Source of the DNA: a virus
Lineage: Duplodnaviria > Caudoviricetes
Strand: one strand, 5' to 3'
IMG/VR virus record: IMGVR_UViG_3300009151_000346
Span: 1 to 25,019 of that record
DNA: 25,019 bases
Shown here one piece after another: positions 1,217-11,303 of this stretch. The stretch's first letter is position 1, and every line of letters begins with the position of its first letter. The notes under the pieces are model-generated. The model ran no database searches and had not been told where the DNA came from. It saw only the letters and a program-made list of their open reading frames with translations. A program made the translations under genes and the position numbers.

Positions 1217-2416
1217 ATGCCAAAACTTTCCATGTACAAGCCCGAAAAGGGCAATGATTTTAGATTTATAGATCGTGTAATTAACGAAGAATTCCAAGTC
1301 GGCGGTACAGATGTTTATATACACAAATATCTCGGCCCCGTTAATCCCGAAGAAGGAAACAGTACTCCTACACAACCTAATAATTCCAATCCTATTCCAG
1401 AATTAGGAATACAAGATTTGTTGTTTATGGAAAACAGAGATAGACATTATGCTCCAGATGTTTACGTTATTCGTGGCATATATACCATGCAAGACTTAGA
1501 TTTTAATTTGAGTCAATTTGGATTATTTCTTCAGAATGACAACATTATGATTAATTTTCACTTACGTAGCAGTTTTGATGCATTAGGTAGAAAAATTATG
1601 GCAGGCGATGTTATAGAATTGCCACATCAAAAAGATGAATATGCATTAGATGATAGTCTTGTAGCACTAAGAAGATTCTATGTTGTTTCAGAGGTTACAC
1701 GCCCTGCCAGTGGATATAGCCAAACTTGGTATCCACATTTAGTTAGAGCAAAATGTTCACCACTAGTTGATAGTCAGGAATTTAAAGAAATTCTTGATGC
1801 AGATTCTGGAGCAGAAGATGGTAGTACATTACGTGATTTAATATCATCATATAAGAAAAATATAGAAATTAATAATCAAATTATTCAACAGGCACAAGCG
1901 GATGTTGAAAAGAGTGGATATAAAACTGAGCAATTTTACATTGTACCAGTTAGTAATACCGGAACAGGATTATTATCCGTAGCTGATGCTACAATTGATA
2001 ATACCGATGTTACGTCAGAATCATCATATTTAGATGCATCGGCTGTATTAAATACTCCTGGTAAAAATTATTATATCGGATATTTAACAGGTGATGGACT
2101 TCCACCAAATGGTATTCCTTATGGATTTGGTATTATATTTCCTGCAACTCCAGCACTTGGTGATTTTTTCTTAAGAACCGATTATTTGCCTAATAGGTTA
2201 TTTAGATACGATGGGGTACATTGGATCAAATACGAAGATAATGTAAGAATGACCACCAGTATGATGGGAGAATCACAAACAGATAATCCATTATTGGTAA
2301 GAAGAAAGTTAAAAACTAGTTTTGTCAATAATACAACAACTGGTACAATTTCTGGTGTAGTTGTTCGAGAACGACAGGCACTAAGTCAAGTATTAAAACC
2401 AAGGGCAGATTTATAA
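1217..2416 (+). CDS. Neck / head-closure protein, T4 gp14-like (true start 1217, 399 aa)
   Basis: MPKLSMYKPEKGNDFRFIDR...; FQVGGTDVYIHKY, DLLFMENRDRHY, LSQFGLFL, GDVIELPH and YVVSEV follow the gp14-family pattern. The ORF-track start at 1121 overlaps the gp13-like gene, whereas ATG 1217 follows a TATAAATA box. Confidence 0.8.
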   Translation: MPKLSMYKPEKGNDFRFIDRVINEEFQVGGTDVYIHKYLGPVNPEEGNSTPTQPNNSNPIPELGIQDLLFMENRDRHYAPDVYVIRGIYTMQDLDFNLSQFGLFLQNDNIMINFHLRSSFDALGRKIMAGDVIELPHQKDEYALDDSLVALRRFYVVSEVTRPASGYSQTWYPHLVRAKCSPLVDSQEFKEILDADSGAEDGSTLRDLISSYKKNIEINNQIIQQAQADVEKSGYKTEQFYIVPVSNTGTGLLSVADATIDNTDVTSESSYLDASAVLNTPGKNYYIGYLTGDGLPPNGIPYGFGIIFPATPALGDFFLRTDYLPNRLFRYDGVHWIKYEDNVRMTTSMMGESQTDNPLLVRRKLKTSFVNNTTTGTISGVVVRERQALSQVLKPRADL

Positions 2417-2417
2417 T

Positions 2418-3867
2418 ATGGTTATTTACAAATTAAACACGGAGGCAGCGGTTTAACACCGACTGTACTAAATCGGACTACTTTTATGATGGGCAAATAC
2501 GTAGATATTTGTCACAATTTATTCAAATACTTAGTAATTTTGCCTACAAAGATGCCAAAGGTAATTTAGTACAGGTGCCTGTTCGTTATGGAGATATGAC
2601 TAGACAAGTTGGACAAATACTAAAAAAGAATAGTGAGAACACAATTCCTAGTGCTCCATTTATTTCTTGCTATATCAAAGAATTAGAATTTGATAGAGAA
2701 CGATTACAAGATCCAACTTTTATTAGTAAAATTAATATAATAGAAAGAGACATTGAGCATCAACAATACTTAAATACCAAAGGCAATAACTATACCATTG
2801 AACGTATTATGCCAAGTCCGTATAAATTAACGTTAAATGCAGATATATGGACTACTAGTAACGATCAAAAATTACAAATATTTGAACAAATAGCAATTTT
2901 CTTTACTCCAAGTTTTGAAATACAAACTACAGATAATTATCTTGATTGGACAAGTCTAAGTACTGTTAGATTAGATGATGTGAACTGGACTAGTCGTCAA
3001 ATTCCCCAAGGAGTTACAGAAGATATAGATATCATGACTATGACATTTGATACGCCTGTATGGATTACTCCTCCTGCCAAAGTAAAAAAATTAGGAGTTA
3101 TTACTAAAATTATATCTAATATATTTTCAGGTAATGCACAAGGAACAATTTCTAGTCTATATAATGTACAAGATGCTTCTGATGTATTTTCAAATGTTTC
3201 TCCAGATGCAACAATTACAATAACTCCTGGAAATTATGATTTATTAGTTTTAAACAATACTGCAAGGCTAATACACAGTAATGGTGTTGGTGAAAACATT
3301 GATATTACAGCACCAAAAAATACAGCATCGTGGCATAAAGTATTAGATTTATATCCTGGAAAATTTAGAGCAGGGTTAAGTGAATTAAGATTTGCTCAAT
3401 CGGGAGGCAATGAAATAATTGCTTATATGAGTTTAGATCCTAGTGATGATTTTGCTATGAGATTGAACATAAACACCGACACTGTACCAAGTAATACAAT
3501 TATTGCAGGTAGAGGAACAGTCGATGCTGTAGTTAATCCTGAAAATTTTAATCCTGGAACAGTCACAATAAACACAAGATATTTGATATTAGAAGATATC
3601 AATAACAATCCGCTATTTGGACACACAGGATATCAAGGACCGGTTGCATGGCAAAATTCCGATCATACAGATTTTCAAGCATTTGCCAATGACATTATAG
3701 AGTGGAATGGTAGTAACTGGAATGTTATATTCAGTTCTGCGACAGTTACTAGTATTATATACATAACTAATTCATATACGAGTACACAGTATAAATGGGA
3801 TAACGGAGCATGGAGTAAGAGTTATGAGGGCGTTTATAGTTCAACATTATGGAGAATAATTCTTTAA
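2418..3867 (+). CDS. Tail terminator / sheath stabiliser, T4 gp15-like, with interrupted 5' end (ATG 2418; conserved frame resumes at 2476)
   Basis: The frame from 2476 reads DYFYDGQIRRYLSQFIQILSNF...VPVRYG...MPSPYKLTLNADIWT...QIFEQIAIFFTP, the gp15-family pattern. This frame has no ATG/GTG/TTG between TAA 2434 and TTG 2509. ATG 2418 is in a different frame. Confidence 0.8.
2421..2475 (+). other. 55-nt intervening element (candidate mini-intron or recoding signal) containing GGAGG and a hairpin
   Basis: Removing it fuses ATG to GAC TAC TTT TAT (MDYFY...). It contains GGAGG (2441-2445) and the hairpin CAGCGGT-TTAAC-ACCG(A)CTG (2446-2465), with the frame-0 stop TAA (2454-2456) in the loop. Confidence 0.55.
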
Positions 3868-4289: not shown

Positions 4290-5074
4290 AATCCTAGATG
4301 TTTTTTTCTAACAAATTCTAAATCGTAATTAGATTGCTGAGAACTTTCTGCTTGTTTTTCAAATGGTGTACGTGTTGGAGAACATATTCTCCAGTCTGGT
4401 CCCCATTTCTTTGTCAATTACTCTATATTCATTGCGTTGACATCATCTAATTTTTCTTTTAAGCTAGGATCATTTTTTTGTGTTTGATAATGATATTCCC
4501 CATCGCTTAGTTCTAATCCGTGATAGTATGGTTTTTCTAAAGACAATATTTTTCTAATTGGTCTATGTATAAATCTCATAATATAGTCCGCATCTTCACA
4601 ATATGCTGGATATAAGTTTTCGTCAAATAATCCAAAATGTTGAATAATAACATCTCTTATTAAAAATAAATCCCAACTACCAACACCAAATGCTCCCGGA
4701 TTACCATGTATCAATCCTAGATTAGAATCGTTCTCTATCTTAGTTGACATTTCTTCCAATACACCTGGACCAAATGACACATCGTCATTGGCTATAATCC
4801 AATATGGACTATTCATGAAACATTTAATTATAAGATTCCATGCACCAGCAACTCCTATATTTGCGGGTAAATGTACTATTTTTATATTCTTAACAAATTT
4901 GTGATTTATTTTTTTTAAATTATCCAAATCTTCGTCTAATTCTCCACGACCATTATTGTTGATAATAACAAAATTATCAACAGGATAGTCAATACTCATT
5001 AGTAATCTAGTTACCCAGAAATTACTATTAACTACTGCTGTTCCAATAACTGGTATTGATTGTTGTGTGCTCAT
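4286..5074 (-). CDS. GT-A fold (GT2-like) glycosyltransferase with internal in-frame TAA at 4418-4420 (218 aa to first stop; 262 aa if read through)
   Basis: NIGVAGAWNLII, YWIIANDDV (DxD-like) and FGLFDENLYPAYCEDADY motifs. After the TAA the same frame continues LTKKWGPDWRICSPTRTPF...YDLEFVRKKHLGF* to a stop that overlaps the Nudix stop. Confidence 0.8.
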
Positions 5075-5991
5075 CTTATAAAACCTTTTTCAAATTTAAT
5101 TACATCAGAATCTAACTTTATTCCATTTTCACAAGATCTACAAATGTTAAAAGTAGAATAAGGTTCTGGGATTACTTCTTCGTAACTTTGATCATATAAA
5201 TTACCTATAATATTTTCTAAACTATAATCCATACAACAAAGAGAAACATCTCCATTTGGCAATAAAACATTATGATACAATCTTTCTTCACAATTGCAAG
5301 TCATGTCATGATTTCCGTGAAATACTGTTTTATATTCATTCTTTAAATTTTCTAACTCGGGTTTTAATAATGCCTCACCTAGTAAATTTCCTGCACGATG
5401 CCACATTTCGTGTACTGGTGCAGATGAATATAGATGCCTAATATCTTCATGAATTTCGGTTCCCATAGACATGGTATGAAAATTATGTATTTCATGTTGA
5501 ATTGTTTTCATGTATTCTAAAAGTTTAATATATCCTTTAGTTATTGGATGTTTTGCTAAACGCCCTTGATCGGGCAAATGTAAAACAAAACCACCGTTGG
5601 GATTACCAGAAAACGGAATATGTTTAATACGTTCCATATCTTCTATAGACATTCCTATACCAGTAGTGAATATAGACACAGGATGGCCTTGATCGTGTGC
5701 ATACAATACCATATCTGTACAATATTTATTCATCCACGGCTCAGTAAATCCTGCAAATGTAATTCTTATGTCTTTAGGTACTTTATCTATTAACGTTCTA
5801 AACCCTTCTATAGATAAAATTGCTTCGCCTTTATATTTAGATTCTAAAATGCGTTGTGGACAGAACACACAATCAACCACGCATCCTTTTTTTGGAATTA
5901 TGGTAGTAATTTCCAACGTGGGAGCACGAGACAGTCTCCACTTCTCAGTATAAACTCCTGGAAAAACTTTTATTTTATGTTCTGATTTCAT
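5071..5991 (-). CDS. Radical SAM protein with SPASM/twitch-like C-terminal domain
   Basis: CxxxCxxC (GCVVDCVFCPQ), GFTEPW, IFTTG, and C-terminal C...VLLPNGDVSLCC...IGNL...CRSC. ATGA overlap with the GT gene. Confidence 0.9.
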   Translation of the reverse strand: MKSEHKIKVFPGVYTEKWRLSRAPTLEITTIIPKKGCVVDCVFCPQRILESKYKGEAILSIEGFRTLIDKVPKDIRITFAGFTEPWMNKYCTDMVLYAHDQGHPVSIFTTGIGMSIEDMERIKHIPFSGNPNGGFVLHLPDQGRLAKHPITKGYIKLLEYMKTIQHEIHNFHTMSMGTEIHEDIRHLYSSAPVHEMWHRAGNLLGEALLKPELENLKNEYKTVFHGNHDMTCNCEERLYHNVLLPNGDVSLCCMDYSLENIIGNLYDQSYEEVIPEPYSTFNICRSCENGIKLDSDVIKFEKGFIR

Positions 5992-5992
5992 A

Positions 5993-7954
5993 CTATCTGT
6001 TGTCTATGTATATGGTAATTGCACCGTAATAATCAATAAAATGATCATTCCATAGATCCCACTTGATATTTACGTTATCCATTGAAAATATTTCAATTTT
6101 CTTAAAATCTTTTAAATATGTATCTCTAAATTTTTTAAATTTAATTTTTAGCTCTTCATTATGAAGATGGAATTCTCCAGAAATTTTCTTTACATTACTA
6201 AAAACCCATTCTTTGTTTTCATCTGTGAACATATCATATTCACCGCCCTCACAATCAGTTTTTAAGAAATCAATTTGATTAATACCATAGGTGTTTATTA
6301 ACGTATTAAAAGTAATTCCGTCAGCATCTGATTCTTTACCCCAAATTTCTTGTACATCTTTGTCAAATATTCCCCAAGATTTAAATGCTGTATCAACGTG
6401 AGCTACTGCTTTATTAATACCAGTAACATTATCATACTTTTTTAAATTATTAGTTAATGTTTTATATAAATTCTTGTTAGGTTCTAGGCAAATTACCCTT
6501 GATGGTTTTTTATCAATAATACTATATGTAAATGGGCCAACACTAGCACCTACGTCTAATACTACATCACCTTCTTCAACTTTGAAAAACTTTTGATATA
6601 AATCTTGTACAAAAATTTCATCTTTAACTACTTTAAGGAACCATGGATTTTCTTGAATTTCTCCCCAGTCGAACTCATCATCGGTAATTTTACCAAACAT
6701 ATAGTCTTCTGCTTTTTTGATTTGTGAACCAGTAAATTTCATCTTTTCTAATATTGATGGATCTATTAAATCTGGATGTATCCACCAATCTTCATAGTTA
6801 CGCCATTCGTCAGGTGCAATATTGCCTGCTACCATAACATATCCAAAGGACTCTAAATATTTTCTTGATTTTTCCCTAAAACTTTTAGATTCATCACAAT
6901 AATAATCGTGCTCATAAGTAATAACTGCAAATTGATATTTTTCAAAAGGTATTGATAATAGTATTTTATACGTAATATTAGGTGGGTCACAATCTAATTG
7001 CAGATAATCTATATTGTTAGAAAAATCCAATCCAGATAAAAATTTCTCATAATTTACTAATGTTGCATCTTTCAGCAGACATGGGTTTTTTCTTTCTTTT
7101 GAAAACGCATCAATAAACTGCTGATCTATATCTAGAGATATTCCTGTCCACTCAAAATCTTGTTCTAGTAATGCTGTATTATTTCCATAAAATGGATCAG
7201 CAGCACCTATCTCTAAATAAGTGCCTTTGCGTTTTCCATTTAACATCGTTAACACAAACATATCTTGATACGATTCAGAAAAGTTTTTTTCAATTTTTTC
7301 CGACCCTGGAAATTTTAATTTTAGTTGATTAAATTTTTCTTTATTGAATAAAGTTAATTTATTTTCTTTAATTCCAATTTCTTCAAAATACTTTAAATTT
7401 TTTAGAACTGCTTCTCTATGTACAGTATCAATATTATGATTAACTAATAAATCGTTGAATAACGTTCTAGATTCTTCGCATAATCCACACCACCAACTAC
7501 TAACTGCCTTTTCAAATAATAATCCATATTTTCCGGGATATCCTACATCGGTAATCAATGATGGAGAATTATGGTCACAAACACCCAACCCTGTAGATGA
7601 TAACATGTAACATAAAAACCAATCGCCTTCTTTCTGTTCAACTTCATGTAATCTACTTAAAAAGAAATATGCCTCTGGTCGGGTTGGCAACAATGCAATA
7701 GCATGTTGCAGTAGACCTTTTACGGAAAATGCCCGTGTTCCTTGAGATTCAAAACATCGTGCGGCTTTTATTAAACATTCGTATTTTAACAAATCGTCGT
7801 TTGTTCTTTCAGCGGTCCTTATATAATAAGAAACTGCCGATGCGGTTTGTCCTATACTATTATAATACAATGCTAATGAAAAATTAATTTCAGCATCCGC
7901 GGGGTCATGTATAAATTTTTCTAATAAACTAATAAGTGTGCTATTTGTTTTCAT
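5993..7954 (-). CDS. TPR-like domain plus two FkbM-like SAM-dependent methyltransferase domains
   Basis: N-terminal helical repeats (AVSYYIRTAE, LLPTRPEAYFFLS). Domain 1 has SYQDMFV...YLEIGAADP...IDYLQLDCDP...YEDWW. Domain 2 has VLDVGASVG...CLEP...IDFLKTDCEGGE...GEFH. Confidence 0.85.
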   Translation of the reverse strand: MKTNSTLISLLEKFIHDPADAEINFSLALYYNSIGQTASAVSYYIRTAERTNDDLLKYECLIKAARCFESQGTRAFSVKGLLQHAIALLPTRPEAYFFLSRLHEVEQKEGDWFLCYMLSSTGLGVCDHNSPSLITDVGYPGKYGLLFEKAVSSWWCGLCEESRTLFNDLLVNHNIDTVHREAVLKNLKYFEEIGIKENKLTLFNKEKFNQLKLKFPGSEKIEKNFSESYQDMFVLTMLNGKRKGTYLEIGAADPFYGNNTALLEQDFEWTGISLDIDQQFIDAFSKERKNPCLLKDATLVNYEKFLSGLDFSNNIDYLQLDCDPPNITYKILLSIPFEKYQFAVITYEHDYYCDESKSFREKSRKYLESFGYVMVAGNIAPDEWRNYEDWWIHPDLIDPSILEKMKFTGSQIKKAEDYMFGKITDDEFDWGEIQENPWFLKVVKDEIFVQDLYQKFFKVEEGDVVLDVGASVGPFTYSIIDKKPSRVICLEPNKNLYKTLTNNLKKYDNVTGINKAVAHVDTAFKSWGIFDKDVQEIWGKESDADGITFNTLINTYGINQIDFLKTDCEGGEYDMFTDENKEWVFSNVKKISGEFHLHNEELKIKFKKFRDTYLKDFKKIEIFSMDNVNIKWDLWNDHFIDYYGAITIYIDNR

Positions 7955-7961
7955 AATATTT

Positions 7962-8942
7962 TTAATAGGAATTTATAAAATTTTCAAGTTCTTTTACTGG
8001 AAACTTTAGCAAGTAGGCAGCGTTATCTTGGAATCCAAATGTAATTAATATATCATTTTTATAGTTGCACATACCTATGGAAAATTCAACATGAGCATCC
8101 ATGATAGAAAAATCATTGGTATATTTAACTACGTTCCAGTTTTTATCCCAAATGATAAATCTATGTCTATATACTGCATCTTTTCTACCAACTTCACTTT
8201 TGAATAAATCTACTTCGTGTGTTAATGCAATATATCCGTCTTTGAATTTCATCACTTGCGAACCGCCGCGTATATCTCTAGGTAGCCATATTGATCCACT
8301 TAGATATTCTGTTTTAGAAGTTTGTAATATTGGATCAACACTTACTAGTTCGGTAGGATTGGTCCACTTAATATAATGATATGGGACATCCAATACAGGC
8401 ATCCAATTTTTTTCACAATAAGAATCTAGATCTTTAGGGGGAGGTATTCTAAATCTGGATATTTCTGTAACAGCATTTTCTGAAACTGCTATTTCAGACA
8501 GTTCCATTCTACCCTGCCCATTGGTGGTGGTGTCTCTACGTACACCGGTTATATATAACTTTCCGTTCCATCTTATTAATCTTGCATCTTCTAATCCTAC
8601 AAAATCCCACATAGGTTCATAGGTATCAAATTTAGATGTGTCAATTTTATTGATTCTAGTAATTTCAAAATCATCATTGAGTTCGCAATAAAAATTGTCA
8701 GTCCTTAAATGAATATCATTTTCTGGATGCAGGTAAGTTAGAGGACCCCATGGATGTTGAAATAATTTCTTTTCAGAATGAAAAAATGTATAATTAACAT
8801 GTCGAATATTAACAATAATTTTACCGTCGTCTATTAAAATAGATGGATTCATTAATCCCGTACCATTTGTTTGCTCTGACGGGATAATAAGAGGATGTAT
8901 GCTACCGCCTCTATCTAGAGCGAATTTTGCAAGATTTGTCAT
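7962..8942 (-). CDS. Glycosidase/phosphorylase-like beta-propeller protein (GH130-like superfamily, tentative)
   Basis: MNPSI, GLEDARLI, EKNWMP, RGGSQ and HVEFSIGM motifs are typical of this propeller family. Confidence 0.7.
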   Translation of the reverse strand: MTNLAKFALDRGGSIHPLIIPSEQTNGTGLMNPSILIDDGKIIVNIRHVNYTFFHSEKKLFQHPWGPLTYLHPENDIHLRTDNFYCELNDDFEITRINKIDTSKFDTYEPMWDFVGLEDARLIRWNGKLYITGVRRDTTTNGQGRMELSEIAVSENAVTEISRFRIPPPKDLDSYCEKNWMPVLDVPYHYIKWTNPTELVSVDPILQTSKTEYLSGSIWLPRDIRGGSQVMKFKDGYIALTHEVDLFKSEVGRKDAVYRHRFIIWDKNWNVVKYTNDFSIMDAHVEFSIGMCNYKNDILITFGFQDNAAYLLKFPVKELENFINSY

Positions 8943-9290: not shown

Positions 9291-11303
9291 TTAAGATTTT
9301 TCAAGTTTTTTAATTTTTTCTTCTAGCTCTTTAATAGCTTCAATTAATAGAGGAATAATAAGATCATATCTAACAGCCTTAAATGGATTGTTGGGATCGT
9401 TTTTATTTTCTAACCCTAGAGGAATATGTTTAAATACAGCCTCGGGTAATACATTTTCAAGTTCTTGAGCAATAACACCAACTAACTTATCATCTGTTCT
9501 ATGAATATAATTATAATGATATCCATTAATTTGAGATACTTTATCCAGTGCTCCTGTTATCTTAACAATATTTTCTTTAAGTCTTCTATCTGAAGTACCA
9601 TAGAAAGCAGTAATATCACCAGTAGCAGTGATTGCACCATTTATAGTAAGTCCAGCGAATGTTGGACTATTACCGGTGCCAAGTGGTTGTACAGCAGGTC
9701 CAGTTGCACCCGTGGCGCCCTGTGTGGCTGTACCCGTGGCACCCTGTGTGGCTGTACCGGTAACGCCTTGTGTGGCTGTACCGGTAACACCTTGATTACC
9801 AGTCGTACCTTGATTACCAGTATTACCTTGATTACCTGTAGTACCTTGATTACCTGTAGTACCTTGATTACCTGTAGTACCTTGATTACCAGTCGTACCT
9901 TGATTACCAGTCGTACCTTGATTTCCTGTAGTACCTTGACTGCCAGTAGTACCTTGATTACCAGTAGTACCTTGATTACCAGTAGTACCTTGATTACCAG
10001 TAGTACCTTGATTACCGGTGATACCTTGACGACCTTGAGTTCCTTGACTGCCTAATACCCCTTGACTACCAGTAGTACCTTGATTACCAGTAGTACCTTG
10101 ATTACCGGTGATACCTTGATTACCAAAAGTACCTTGACTGCCTAATACACCTTGATTACCAGTAGTACCTTGATTACCAGTAGTACCTTGACTACCAATA
10201 ACACCTTGACTGCCAATAGTACCTTGATTACCAGTAGTACCTTGAATACCAGTAGCACCTTGAATACCAGTAGCACCTTGAATACCAGTAGTACCTTGAA
10301 TACCAGTAGTACCTTGACTGCCTAATACACCTTGATTACCAGTATTACCTTGATTACCTGTAGTACCTTGACTACCAATAACACCTTGACTACCAATAAC
10401 ACCTTGACTACCAATAACACCTTGACTGCCAATAGTACCTTGATTACCTGTAGTACCCTGAGTTCCTTGATTACCAGTAGTACCTTGATTACCAGTAGTA
10501 CCTTGACTACCAGTAGTACCTTGACTACCAATAACACCTTGACTACCAATAACACCTTGATTACCTGTAGTACCTTGATTACCAAAAGTACCTTGACTGC
10601 CTAATAAACCTTGAGTTCCTTGATTACCTGTAGTACCTTGATTACCTGTAGTACCTTGAATACCTGTAGTACCTTGACTGCCTAATACACCTTGATTACC
10701 AGTAGTACCTTGATTACCAGTAGTACCTTGAATACCAGTAGCACCTTGAATACCAGTAGCACCTTGAATACCATTGGTGCCCTGACCGGCAGTAGCACCT
10801 TGATTACCAGTCGTACCTTGATTACCAGTAGTACCTTGAATACCAGTAGCACCTTGAATACCAGTAGTACCTTGATTACCAGTCGTACCTTGATTACCAG
10901 TATAACCTTGATTACCAAAAGTACCTTGACTGCCTAATACCCCTTGACTACCAATAACACCTTGACTACCAATAACACCTTGATTACCTGTAGTACCTTG
11001 ACTACCAATAACACCTTGATTACCTGTAGTACCTTGTGTAGCTGTACCAGTAGCACCTTGGACACCTGTTGTACCTTGAACGCTAGTTCCTTGGGGTCCC
11101 GCAGTACCCTGAGGTCCTGTAAGGAGGCCAGTACTAATATAAACTTGTCCACCAACATATAAATCTTTACCAATACCAACACCACCAGAAACGGTTAATG
11201 CTCCAGTAATTGTTGAAGATGCATTGGTAGTGCCATTGACTAATAATCGAGTATCAACGGTACCGGTTCCGTATATTCTTGTTCCAGATAAGAGTTGTGC
11301 CAT
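9291..11303 (-). CDS. Collagen-like tail fibre with C-terminal intramolecular chaperone (peptidase S74-like)
   Basis: About 139 G-X-Y triplets, then GDITAFYGTSDRRLKENI...GVIAQE...VRYDLIIPLLIEAIKEL followed by a coiled coil. Confidence 0.9.
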   Translation of the reverse strand: MAQLLSGTRIYGTGTVDTRLLVNGTTNASSTITGALTVSGGVGIGKDLYVGGQVYISTGLLTGPQGTAGPQGTSVQGTTGVQGATGTATQGTTGNQGVIGSQGTTGNQGVIGSQGVIGSQGVLGSQGTFGNQGYTGNQGTTGNQGTTGIQGATGIQGTTGNQGTTGNQGATAGQGTNGIQGATGIQGATGIQGTTGNQGTTGNQGVLGSQGTTGIQGTTGNQGTTGNQGTQGLLGSQGTFGNQGTTGNQGVIGSQGVIGSQGTTGSQGTTGNQGTTGNQGTQGTTGNQGTIGSQGVIGSQGVIGSQGVIGSQGTTGNQGNTGNQGVLGSQGTTGIQGTTGIQGATGIQGATGIQGTTGNQGTIGSQGVIGSQGTTGNQGTTGNQGVLGSQGTFGNQGITGNQGTTGNQGTTGSQGVLGSQGTQGRQGITGNQGTTGNQGTTGNQGTTGNQGTTGSQGTTGNQGTTGNQGTTGNQGTTGNQGTTGNQGTTGNQGNTGNQGTTGNQGVTGTATQGVTGTATQGATGTATQGATGATGPAVQPLGTGNSPTFAGLTINGAITATGDITAFYGTSDRRLKENIVKITGALDKVSQINGYHYNYIHRTDDKLVGVIAQELENVLPEAVFKHIPLGLENKNDPNNPFKAVRYDLIIPLLIEAIKELEEKIKKLEKS
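9780..11033 (-). repeat. 18-bp coding tandem repeat array (GTTGNQ / GVIGSQ / GATGIQ / GVLGSQ variants)
   Basis: Plus-strand unit ccttgattaccagtagta and variants, repeated about 69 times. Flanked by 24-bp QG(V/A)TGTAT units. Confidence 0.95.

Follow-up and report, generated by a model that had tools for sequence, protein, structure and literature searches.

A GIY-YIG endonuclease remnant within the start of a phage gp15-like tail gene and its candidate hairpin-bridged non-AUG ribosome-binding site

Introduction

In bacteriophage T4, genes 38 and 25 are reported to be translated from split initiation regions, in which a hairpin cuts the spacing between the Shine-Dalgarno (SD) sequence and its AUG from 22 to 5 nucleotides (nt) and from 27 to 11 nt (PMC3014915). 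SD sequences have also been reported to raise re-initiation (PMC2268962). In E. coli, the codons AUA, AUC and AUU are reported to initiate at 1-2% of the AUG level and other codons at 0.01-1%, and infC and pcnB are given as natural AUU starts in bacteria (Hecht, bioRxiv 10.1101/063800). In this study, the start of a gp15-like tail gene was analysed in the IMG/VR virus record IMGVR_UViG_3300009151_000346 (Duplodnaviria; Caudoviricetes), of which the whole stretch of 25,019 nt is called the window and provides all coordinates. Here, a 55-nt insert (2421-2475) separates the start codon of this gene from its second codon. Comparison with related loci indicated that the insert is, almost beyond doubt, what an in-frame deletion has left of a GIY-YIG endonuclease gene lodged between the gp15 ATG and codon 2. 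Its conserved 3' module probably forms a hairpin-bridged ribosome-binding site, from which gp15 would be newly initiated at a non-AUG codon, in the window probably UCG 2473-2475. A first-pass annotation of this DNA had held that ordinary initiation cannot make the full protein, which was upheld, and had offered RNA excision, a ribosome hop or a +1 frameshift instead, all three of which were contradicted by the comparative evidence.

Results

The gene downstream of the insert (2476-3867, + strand, codons 2-464) encodes a gp15-like tail sheath stabiliser/terminator, as judged from Pfam (T4-gp15_tss, E 6.5e-24), PHROG and an alignment in which its YFY..RRY motif falls on residues 4-13 of T4 gp15; both the assignment and the motif had been proposed in the first pass and are backed by these searches. 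The nearest cultured matches of the protein are jumbo phages, at approximately 40% identity. The upstream structural gene (1220-2416, + strand) is gp14-like by position and corresponds to PHROG 11591, a virion structural protein. Its stop, TAA 2414-2416, is followed after 1 nt by a captured ATG (2418), which opens only MVIYKLNTEAAV*, with a stop at 2454-2456. The sequence DYFYDGQIRRYL begins at 2476 in a frame that is closed by TAA 2434-2436 and offers TTG 2509 as its first ATG, GTG or TTG, giving an open reading frame (ORF) of 452 amino acids (aa). The positions and translations on which the earlier reading was built could all be reproduced from the sequence.

The origin of the insert was evident from 79 related loci that were first read at this junction, the partial locus L054 being left out. 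Many of them have ATG right before codon 2, and others carry inserts of varied length that share a 3' end. In L007 and L008, an ORF of 188 codons stands in the same place, and the L007 ORF matches Pfam GIY-YIG (PF01541) above the cut-off (E 4.6e-6) and a PHROG homing endonuclease (E 1e-25). The window insert matches the L007 insert letter for letter along 17 nt at its 5' end and 46 nt at its 3' end, and equals it minus 528 nt (176 codons), deleted in frame between two AAATT repeats that left a junction with AAATT microhomology at 2430-2434 (+ strand). The mini-ORF MVIYKLNTEAAV* (2418-2456, + strand) therefore consists of the first 5 and last 7 codons of the endonuclease gene, and the GIY-YIG catalytic domain is gone from this copy. 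The ATG at 2418-2420 (+ strand) occupies the original gp15 start codon position, since it adjoins GAC in the empty locus L004 and opens the full nuclease in L007 and L003; it is now the start of the nuclease stump. The first-pass annotation had already recognised a foreign insert between the start codon and codon 2, which holds for position and foreignness, but it had missed the nuclease and had not weighed re-initiation at a codon other than AUG.

The insert is present in independent samples. The empty site of L004, whose protein is 95% identical, has ATG immediately before GAC, and a DNA contig from run X10 skips exactly 55 nt relative to the window; both agree with the earlier statement that removal of exactly 55 nt restores the native reading. 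The same insert was found in L002, the contig of run X3 is identical to the window across 2372-2522, and the contigs of runs X4 and X5 span the insert gap-free among the differences listed, with X3, X4 and X5 coming from three different studies. Because the insert recurs in L002, X3, X4 and X5 and empty alleles exist in X10, an assembly error was ruled out. Over 2403-2475, the contigs of run X10, which represents one lake sample, include an empty allele, a remnant that has six additional A and a long insert connected to both ends, and thus empty, remnant and long alleles co-occur in a single sample. As a separate observation, the differences listed for X4 and X5 over 2343-2770 are dense up to 2407 and almost absent from 2408 to about 2750, a pattern resembling a conversion or recombination tract.

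Pattern and protein scans yielded 122 distinct anchored junctions, of which 83 were scored as carriers by rule. After removal of four false calls (L214, L232, L243 and L274), the set held 79 carrier and 43 empty junctions; 27 loci without an anchor were dropped, and the register of L141 was set by hand. Presence and absence of the insert among relatives, a comparison proposed in the first pass, are both represented. All 43 empty junctions have ATG or TTG at codon 2 or within a few codons of it. For 75 inserts the sequence reached back to the end of the upstream gene; 32 of these are complete nuclease genes and 43 are remnants, with lengths of about 34 to 587 nt overall and about 34-272 nt for the remnants. 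On a quick gp15 tree, from which 10 short carriers were excluded, the empty state required 23 changes, at least 10 of them forced, and is scattered over the host-gene tree. Homing activity of the parent nuclease is suggested by its family and by this patchy distribution. Two further arrangements were seen at the same site: L095/L096 have a distant nuclease with plain TAATG coupling into M-P-A-S-Q-D-F-F-Y, and the remnant of L039 (MYIY*) brings along an SD-like stretch and an ATG-Ser. Here the same insertion has been dealt with in other ways.

Common to all carriers are GAGGC or GGGGC, a hairpin of 18-20 nt, a spacer and one triplet before the host's codon 2. In the window, all on the + strand, these are the SD sequence GGAGG (2441-2445), conserved across carriers and predicted to be the first half of a split ribosome-binding site; a hairpin (2446-2465) closed by C-G, drawn from the minimum free energy structure and pair conservation, with the nuclease stop TAA (2454-2456) in its loop; the 7-nt AU-rich spacer TACTAAA (2466-2472), with A at -3 and -6 of the following triplet; and the start slot TCG (2473-2475), the predicted initiation codon from module comparison and start context, which is ATT, ATC, ATA or ATG in other carriers. 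The C-G-closed hairpin stands exactly 7 nt before the slot triplet in 61 of 63 distinct modules, and the spacer is constant at 7 nt although the hairpin itself varies from 18 to 20 nt. By junction (n=79), the slot holds ATT 21, ATC 19, ATA 14, TCG 24 and ATG 1 times; by module (n=63), the counts are 20, 15, 13, 14 and 1. An ATH triplet (ATT, ATC or ATA) or ATG therefore occupies the slot at 55/79 junctions, precisely where empty relatives have ATG, and codon 2 after it differs with the host gene (D, E, Q, L or N).

The module was found only at this gene. The hairpin pattern matched 104 viral loci, all 104 at the gp15 start and none at another gene. Among 67 metagenome matches, 20 were set aside by the anchor filter, namely three gp15 carriers (L322, L326 and L339) and 17 unrelated sequences, mostly GC-rich chance matches. 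A second module was not found in the window, where the check consisted of a list of the 26 places with GGAGG.

The hairpin at 2446-2465 is predicted at -9.2 kcal/mol, with z -1.4 for the insert and -2.0 for a 41-nt piece; folding energy by itself is weak evidence and unremarkable here. In 36 modules not selected on the hairpin, the four core stem pairs are kept in 36, 36, 35 and 34 and the closing pair in 35; U-A and U.G alternate in the core (17/15), and C-G is replaced by U-A in 2/36. The first-pass annotation had drawn this hairpin, the only one of its structures that was predicted again, together with an exclusive TTAAAC/GTTTAA hairpin, which is possible in only 5/79 carriers, and a pairing of the insert's ends, for which the required 5' end is variable or absent in relatives. 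Two other functions were considered for the region. The spacer resembles a -10 element by eye (TA-T-T), but neither a -35 element nor the T4 late consensus fits and the transcript would have no start; the conserved NTG at the base of the hairpin, tried as a start, is one base out of frame and then meets a stop in the window.

The TCG modules are in register with the ATH modules, with A at -3 and -6 in 14/14 of them (40/49 and 43/49 for ATH). In ordinary starts, A at -3 occurs in 70% of 96 in the TCG carrier G001 and in 80% of 15 in the window, with a background of about 31%. A start-context matrix built from the 96 ATG starts of G001 gave 2.05 bits for the slot, -0.21 for the AUC register and 0.57 for the AAA register. 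Near-identical gp15 proteins stand behind TCG and ATH modules (L115/L184, L109/L144 and L001/L003), and the TCG modules require no fewer than 4 changes on the nuclease tree and no fewer than 10 on the quick gp15 tree; the two forms thus look interchangeable. At 14/24 TCG junctions, no near-cognate codon occurs in frame back to the last stop; at five others an in-frame ATC immediately precedes TCG, and at the last five the only such codons are AGG or ATA, upstream of or within the SD sequence. Codons 2-12 of TCG carriers showed 43 synonymous against 13 non-synonymous nearest-neighbour differences, and none of the 21 sequences has a stop there. As for a phage tRNA that could read UCG as a start, ARAGORN called 41 tRNA genes in the G001 cluster, and the anticodon CGA was not among them, in a record about 62% complete, so that absence is not implied. 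The same cluster holds a 90-nt tRNA-like gene (L386:10001-10090) called as Ile, with anticodon TAT, which is odd in both anticodon and length.

Elsewhere in the window, the head-tail adaptor gene (430-1188, - strand) and the next gene (ATG 1220, + strand) diverge over 31 nt (1189-1219) that hold TATAAATA, the T4 late promoter consensus. A 670-aa ORF (9291-11303, - strand) consists mostly of collagen-like G-x-Q-G-T-T repeats, and its C-terminal stretch bears a resemblance, by eye, to a tail-fibre chaperone domain. Beside the tail-fibre genes, four ORFs (4418-8942, - strand) look by eye like a glycosyltransferase, a radical-SAM enzyme, a methyltransferase and a glycosidase.

Discussion

The comparison of carriers and empty relatives suggested that gp15 initiation probably takes place within the module. 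In the proposed mechanism, ribosomes coupled from the upstream gene would read the 12 codons of the stump and terminate at the UAA of the hairpin loop. The GGAGG is placed 5 nt ahead of the last sense codon, where it could retain the small subunit; the hairpin would refold, and the GGAGG-to-slot distance would fall from 27 to about 7 nt; in 15/16 ordinary genes of carrier G001, the GGAG-to-ATG spacing is 4-8 nt. The formylmethionyl-tRNA (fMet-tRNA) would then be loaded on the slot, and the product would start M-D-Y-F-Y as in empty relatives. Such initiation should yield little protein, and for a hexameric tail protein this could suffice; the structure of T4 gp15 was solved as six chains, and the low copy number that this implies makes weak initiation plausible. 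Among the remnants with an ATG, the ORF ends at the loop stop in 31/38 (32 after correction of L138), and none runs past the slot. For deletions at microhomologies, the in-frame expectation is 0.33-0.46, compared with 25/31 events after collapsing by hand (P 7e-5). These ends speak for re-initiation after termination, or at the minimum for selection against the overrunning of a weak start by ribosomes. Coupling to the stump would not be obligatory, given the four to five remnants whose ORF ends far upstream and the five that lack an ATG.

Whether the UCG itself is the start codon used in the window is, on the comparison of modules, about evenly balanced. The wider proposal, in which the mobile nuclease cassette serves as a portable RNA ruler and sets the start by distance rather than by codon, with a natural UCG start in at least 14 distinct modules across unrelated gp15 lineages, is offered tentatively and given slightly less than an even chance.

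Several observations weigh against these readings. As to the covariation that the first-pass annotation had asked to be checked, the core pairs are kept with U-A/U.G alternation, but the two outer stem positions mostly hold U.U (a pair forms in 6/36 and 16/36 modules), two-sided changes are few, and the stem core is predicted paired (>0.8) in only 51/79 contexts. UCG is two changes away from AUG, and codons outside the AUA/AUC/AUU set are reported at 0.01-1% of AUG (Hecht, bioRxiv 10.1101/063800). The matrix from the window's 15 starts fails to separate the UCG and AAA registers (0.0 vs -0.14). An ATC lies within 3 nt upstream in all 14 TCG modules (11 out of frame and 3 in frame), which fits the rival starts discussed below. 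The synonymous bias at codons 2-12 may have been inherited from empty ancestors, and the invariance of TCG is weak evidence because the 14 TCG modules share ancestry. The four to five remnants that stop far upstream also belong here. Finally, in L326, a TCG carrier on a metagenome contig, codon 3 is TAG instead of the TAT or TTC of its relatives. This TAG lies near the contig end and may be an error; if not, it would speak against codons 2-3 being translated in that lineage. Apart from it, the 290 codons read are open.

Within the same module, initiation could instead fall on AUC 2472-2474, followed by an immediate +1 slip, or AUCG could be read as four bases with the C extruded as an AUG mimic; either would still yield M-D-Y-F-Y. 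ATC occupies that register in 11/14 TCG modules and stands in frame before TCG in the other three, L109 and L144 differ only in an ATCG versus an ATC register with the same hairpin and spacer, and AUC is a measured near-cognate start (Hecht, bioRxiv 10.1101/063800). However, A at -3 occurs in 0/14 in that register, the context score is negative, and the spacer would be 6 nt where nearly all modules have 7, which makes this start rather unlikely. Start codons are not known to be decoded as four bases, which counts against the AUCG version. It is likewise unlikely that the triplet before TCG (AAA 2470-2472 in the window, ACA or ATC elsewhere) is the start and TCG encodes Ser2 of a product M-S-D-Y-F-Y. 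Several empty relatives do start M-S-D-Y, three TCG modules have ATC in that position, and A at -3 is found in 14/14 in this register too; yet AAA and ACA are as poor as UCG, the spacer would be 4 nt, the context score from the G001 matrix is lower, the nearest empty relative (L004) has no Ser, and the triplet is TCG in 24/24 junctions, never another Ser codon, despite AT-rich genomes. A start at TTG 2509, without the first 11 residues, would be the first canonical one in frame and would agree with the TAG of L326. It is quite improbable, since the first downstream ATG, GTG or TTG falls anywhere from codon 13 to 41 among the 24 TCG junctions, residues 2-12 form the conserved start of the Pfam model, align with T4 gp15 and show the synonymous bias, and the conserved module would be left unexplained.

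Two of the mechanisms offered in the first pass would take ribosomes out of the stump and into gp15, by a +1 shift at GTT-TAA that the SD sequence stimulates or by a hop like that of gene 60. In their favour, the window itself has a loop stop at +1 offset, an open frame to gp15 and GGAGG just upstream; the ORFs of remnants also stay in register with the loop stop, and the bypass of T4 gene 60 likewise rides on a homing-endonuclease element (Manning and Atkins). Among the 79 carriers, however, the offset between the loop stop and the gp15 frame is 0 in 66, +1 in 10 and +2 in 3. An extra in-frame stop between the loop and codon 2 occurs in 21/79, including 4/9 TCG carriers with the window's +1 offset, in which a shifted ribosome would meet TGA. 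The codon before the loop stop never matches the slot (0/79), as a hop would require of take-off and landing codons, no ATG exists between the upstream gene and the module in 5/43 remnants, one of them the TCG carrier L115, and the 32 full inserts would fuse a nuclease of 170-190 aa to gp15. Shift or hop is therefore very improbable. Excision of the 55 nt from RNA as a mini-intron would restore the native reading exactly, as in L004, and is extremely improbable: the 5' end is not conserved, lengths run from 34 to 587 nt, the ATG is absent in five remnants, the last base of the insert varies (A, C, T or G), and an Rfam scan of 2200-2700 gave nothing over the insert at E<=10, only two chance matches outside it. 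A spliced-type junction in RNA would be an unsafe test of splicing, because the same junction exists as DNA in empty relatives. Given the remnants without an upstream ATG, the variable offset and the further stops in 21/79, the shared mechanism cannot be excision, hop or +1 shift from the ATG. Recoding private to the window's subfamily keeps a small residual probability, and private excision a smaller one still.

Hairpin-bridged initiation also leads to the question of why ATG is found in the slot in only 1/79 carriers, though ATH is a single change away. Spacers are often similar to the upstream gene's 3' end (AAC TAA A ahead of the ATG in the empty loci L014, L021 and L042), and a likely reason for the avoidance is that ATG might restore the target of the nuclease. 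Protection from self-cleavage has been reported for the gene 60 cassette (Manning and Atkins, bioRxiv 10.1101/2022.08.31.505936). The relatives that use ATG after a nuclease or remnant (L095 and L039) add codons before the conserved motif, which fits the rebuilding of the target, anecdotally. Alternatively, avoidance of ATG may keep gp15 low. The only carrier with ATG in the slot, L167, has a full nuclease and an unusual D-H-Y-Y start and offers a natural control for the immunity idea.

If the proposed reading is true, it adds a third way for a homing endonuclease to persist in a conserved gene, besides splicing and gene splitting or bypassing: the element takes the ATG and returns a compact initiation module. 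This module is shorter than 40 nt and presents a natural series of start triplets (ATT, ATC, ATA, TCG and ATG) in one context, whereby the limits of bacterial start-codon choice become directly testable. Were UCG used, it would be a natural start outside the near-cognate set. In practical terms, it would also mean that gene callers truncate gp15 in this phage group.

Comparison with known systems

No description of this element or of a natural UCG start was found in the literature searched, whose coverage mostly excluded subscription papers. UCG, two changes from AUG, is not named as a natural start in the available text of bioRxiv 10.1101/063800 or PMC2268962. The likeness to bacterial non-AUG initiation, as described for infC and pcnB (bioRxiv 10.1101/063800), lies in a weak start behind a strong SD sequence. 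With termination-reinitiation as described in PMC2268962, the module would share the raising of re-initiation by an SD sequence; the 16 nt from stop to start are beyond efficient coupling unless the hairpin shortens them. The features of group I, group II or other self-splicing introns are missing, with no Rfam match at E<=10 over the insert and no conserved ends, and those of prfB-type +1 shifting are likewise missing (+1 offset in 10/79; TGA block in 4/9 TCG carriers with that offset).

The parent gene resembles the free-standing GIY-YIG homing endonucleases, the seg genes of T4 as described in PMC2988022, in being an intron-less ORF between conserved genes, in its patchy presence, in a start coupled to the upstream stop and in frequent decay; the catalytic domain was found in L007, and presence and absence are scattered at one site. 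In contrast to seg genes, the element sits within the first two codons of a gene, takes its ATG and appears to supply the initiation signals of a downstream essential gene. Known seg and mob hairpins are reported to regulate the nuclease itself (PMC2988022), whereas the hairpin in the window would serve the neighbour.

MobA and the T4 gene 60 bypass cassette (bioRxiv 10.1101/2022.08.31.505936) are alike in that a homing-endonuclease element carries an RNA device allowing translation of the disrupted host gene. Furthermore, that cassette also outlasts the nuclease and has a stop in a stem-loop, an SD sequence and an AU-rich 3' part, and the gene 60 insert is reported to block self-cleavage. Gene 60 is described as needing matched take-off and landing codons and a nascent peptide, but in this element the codons never match (0/79), and an upstream ORF that could supply the N-terminus is absent in 5/43 remnants and is a nuclease of 170-190 aa in the 32 full inserts. 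Unlike gene 60 as described there, the element has its SD sequence 5' of the hairpin and apparently initiates rather than bypasses.

The closest likeness is to the split initiation regions of T4 genes 38 and 25 (PMC3014915), which share an SD sequence too distant from the start (27 nt in the window, compared with 22 and 27 nt in the T4 genes), a bridging hairpin and a phage tail gene. The T4 regions were tested experimentally according to PMC3014915, whereas the module in the window is known from its sequence. The window module, unlike those of T4, is the 3' end of a mobile nuclease gene whose stop lies in the loop, and it has AUH or UCG in the slot where the T4 genes use AUG. The layout of SD sequence, hairpin and start is present (61/63 modules with a 7-nt spacer) and the AUG start is not (ATG in 1/79); the module is therefore a variant of the T4 gene 25/38 split site and not a member of that class.

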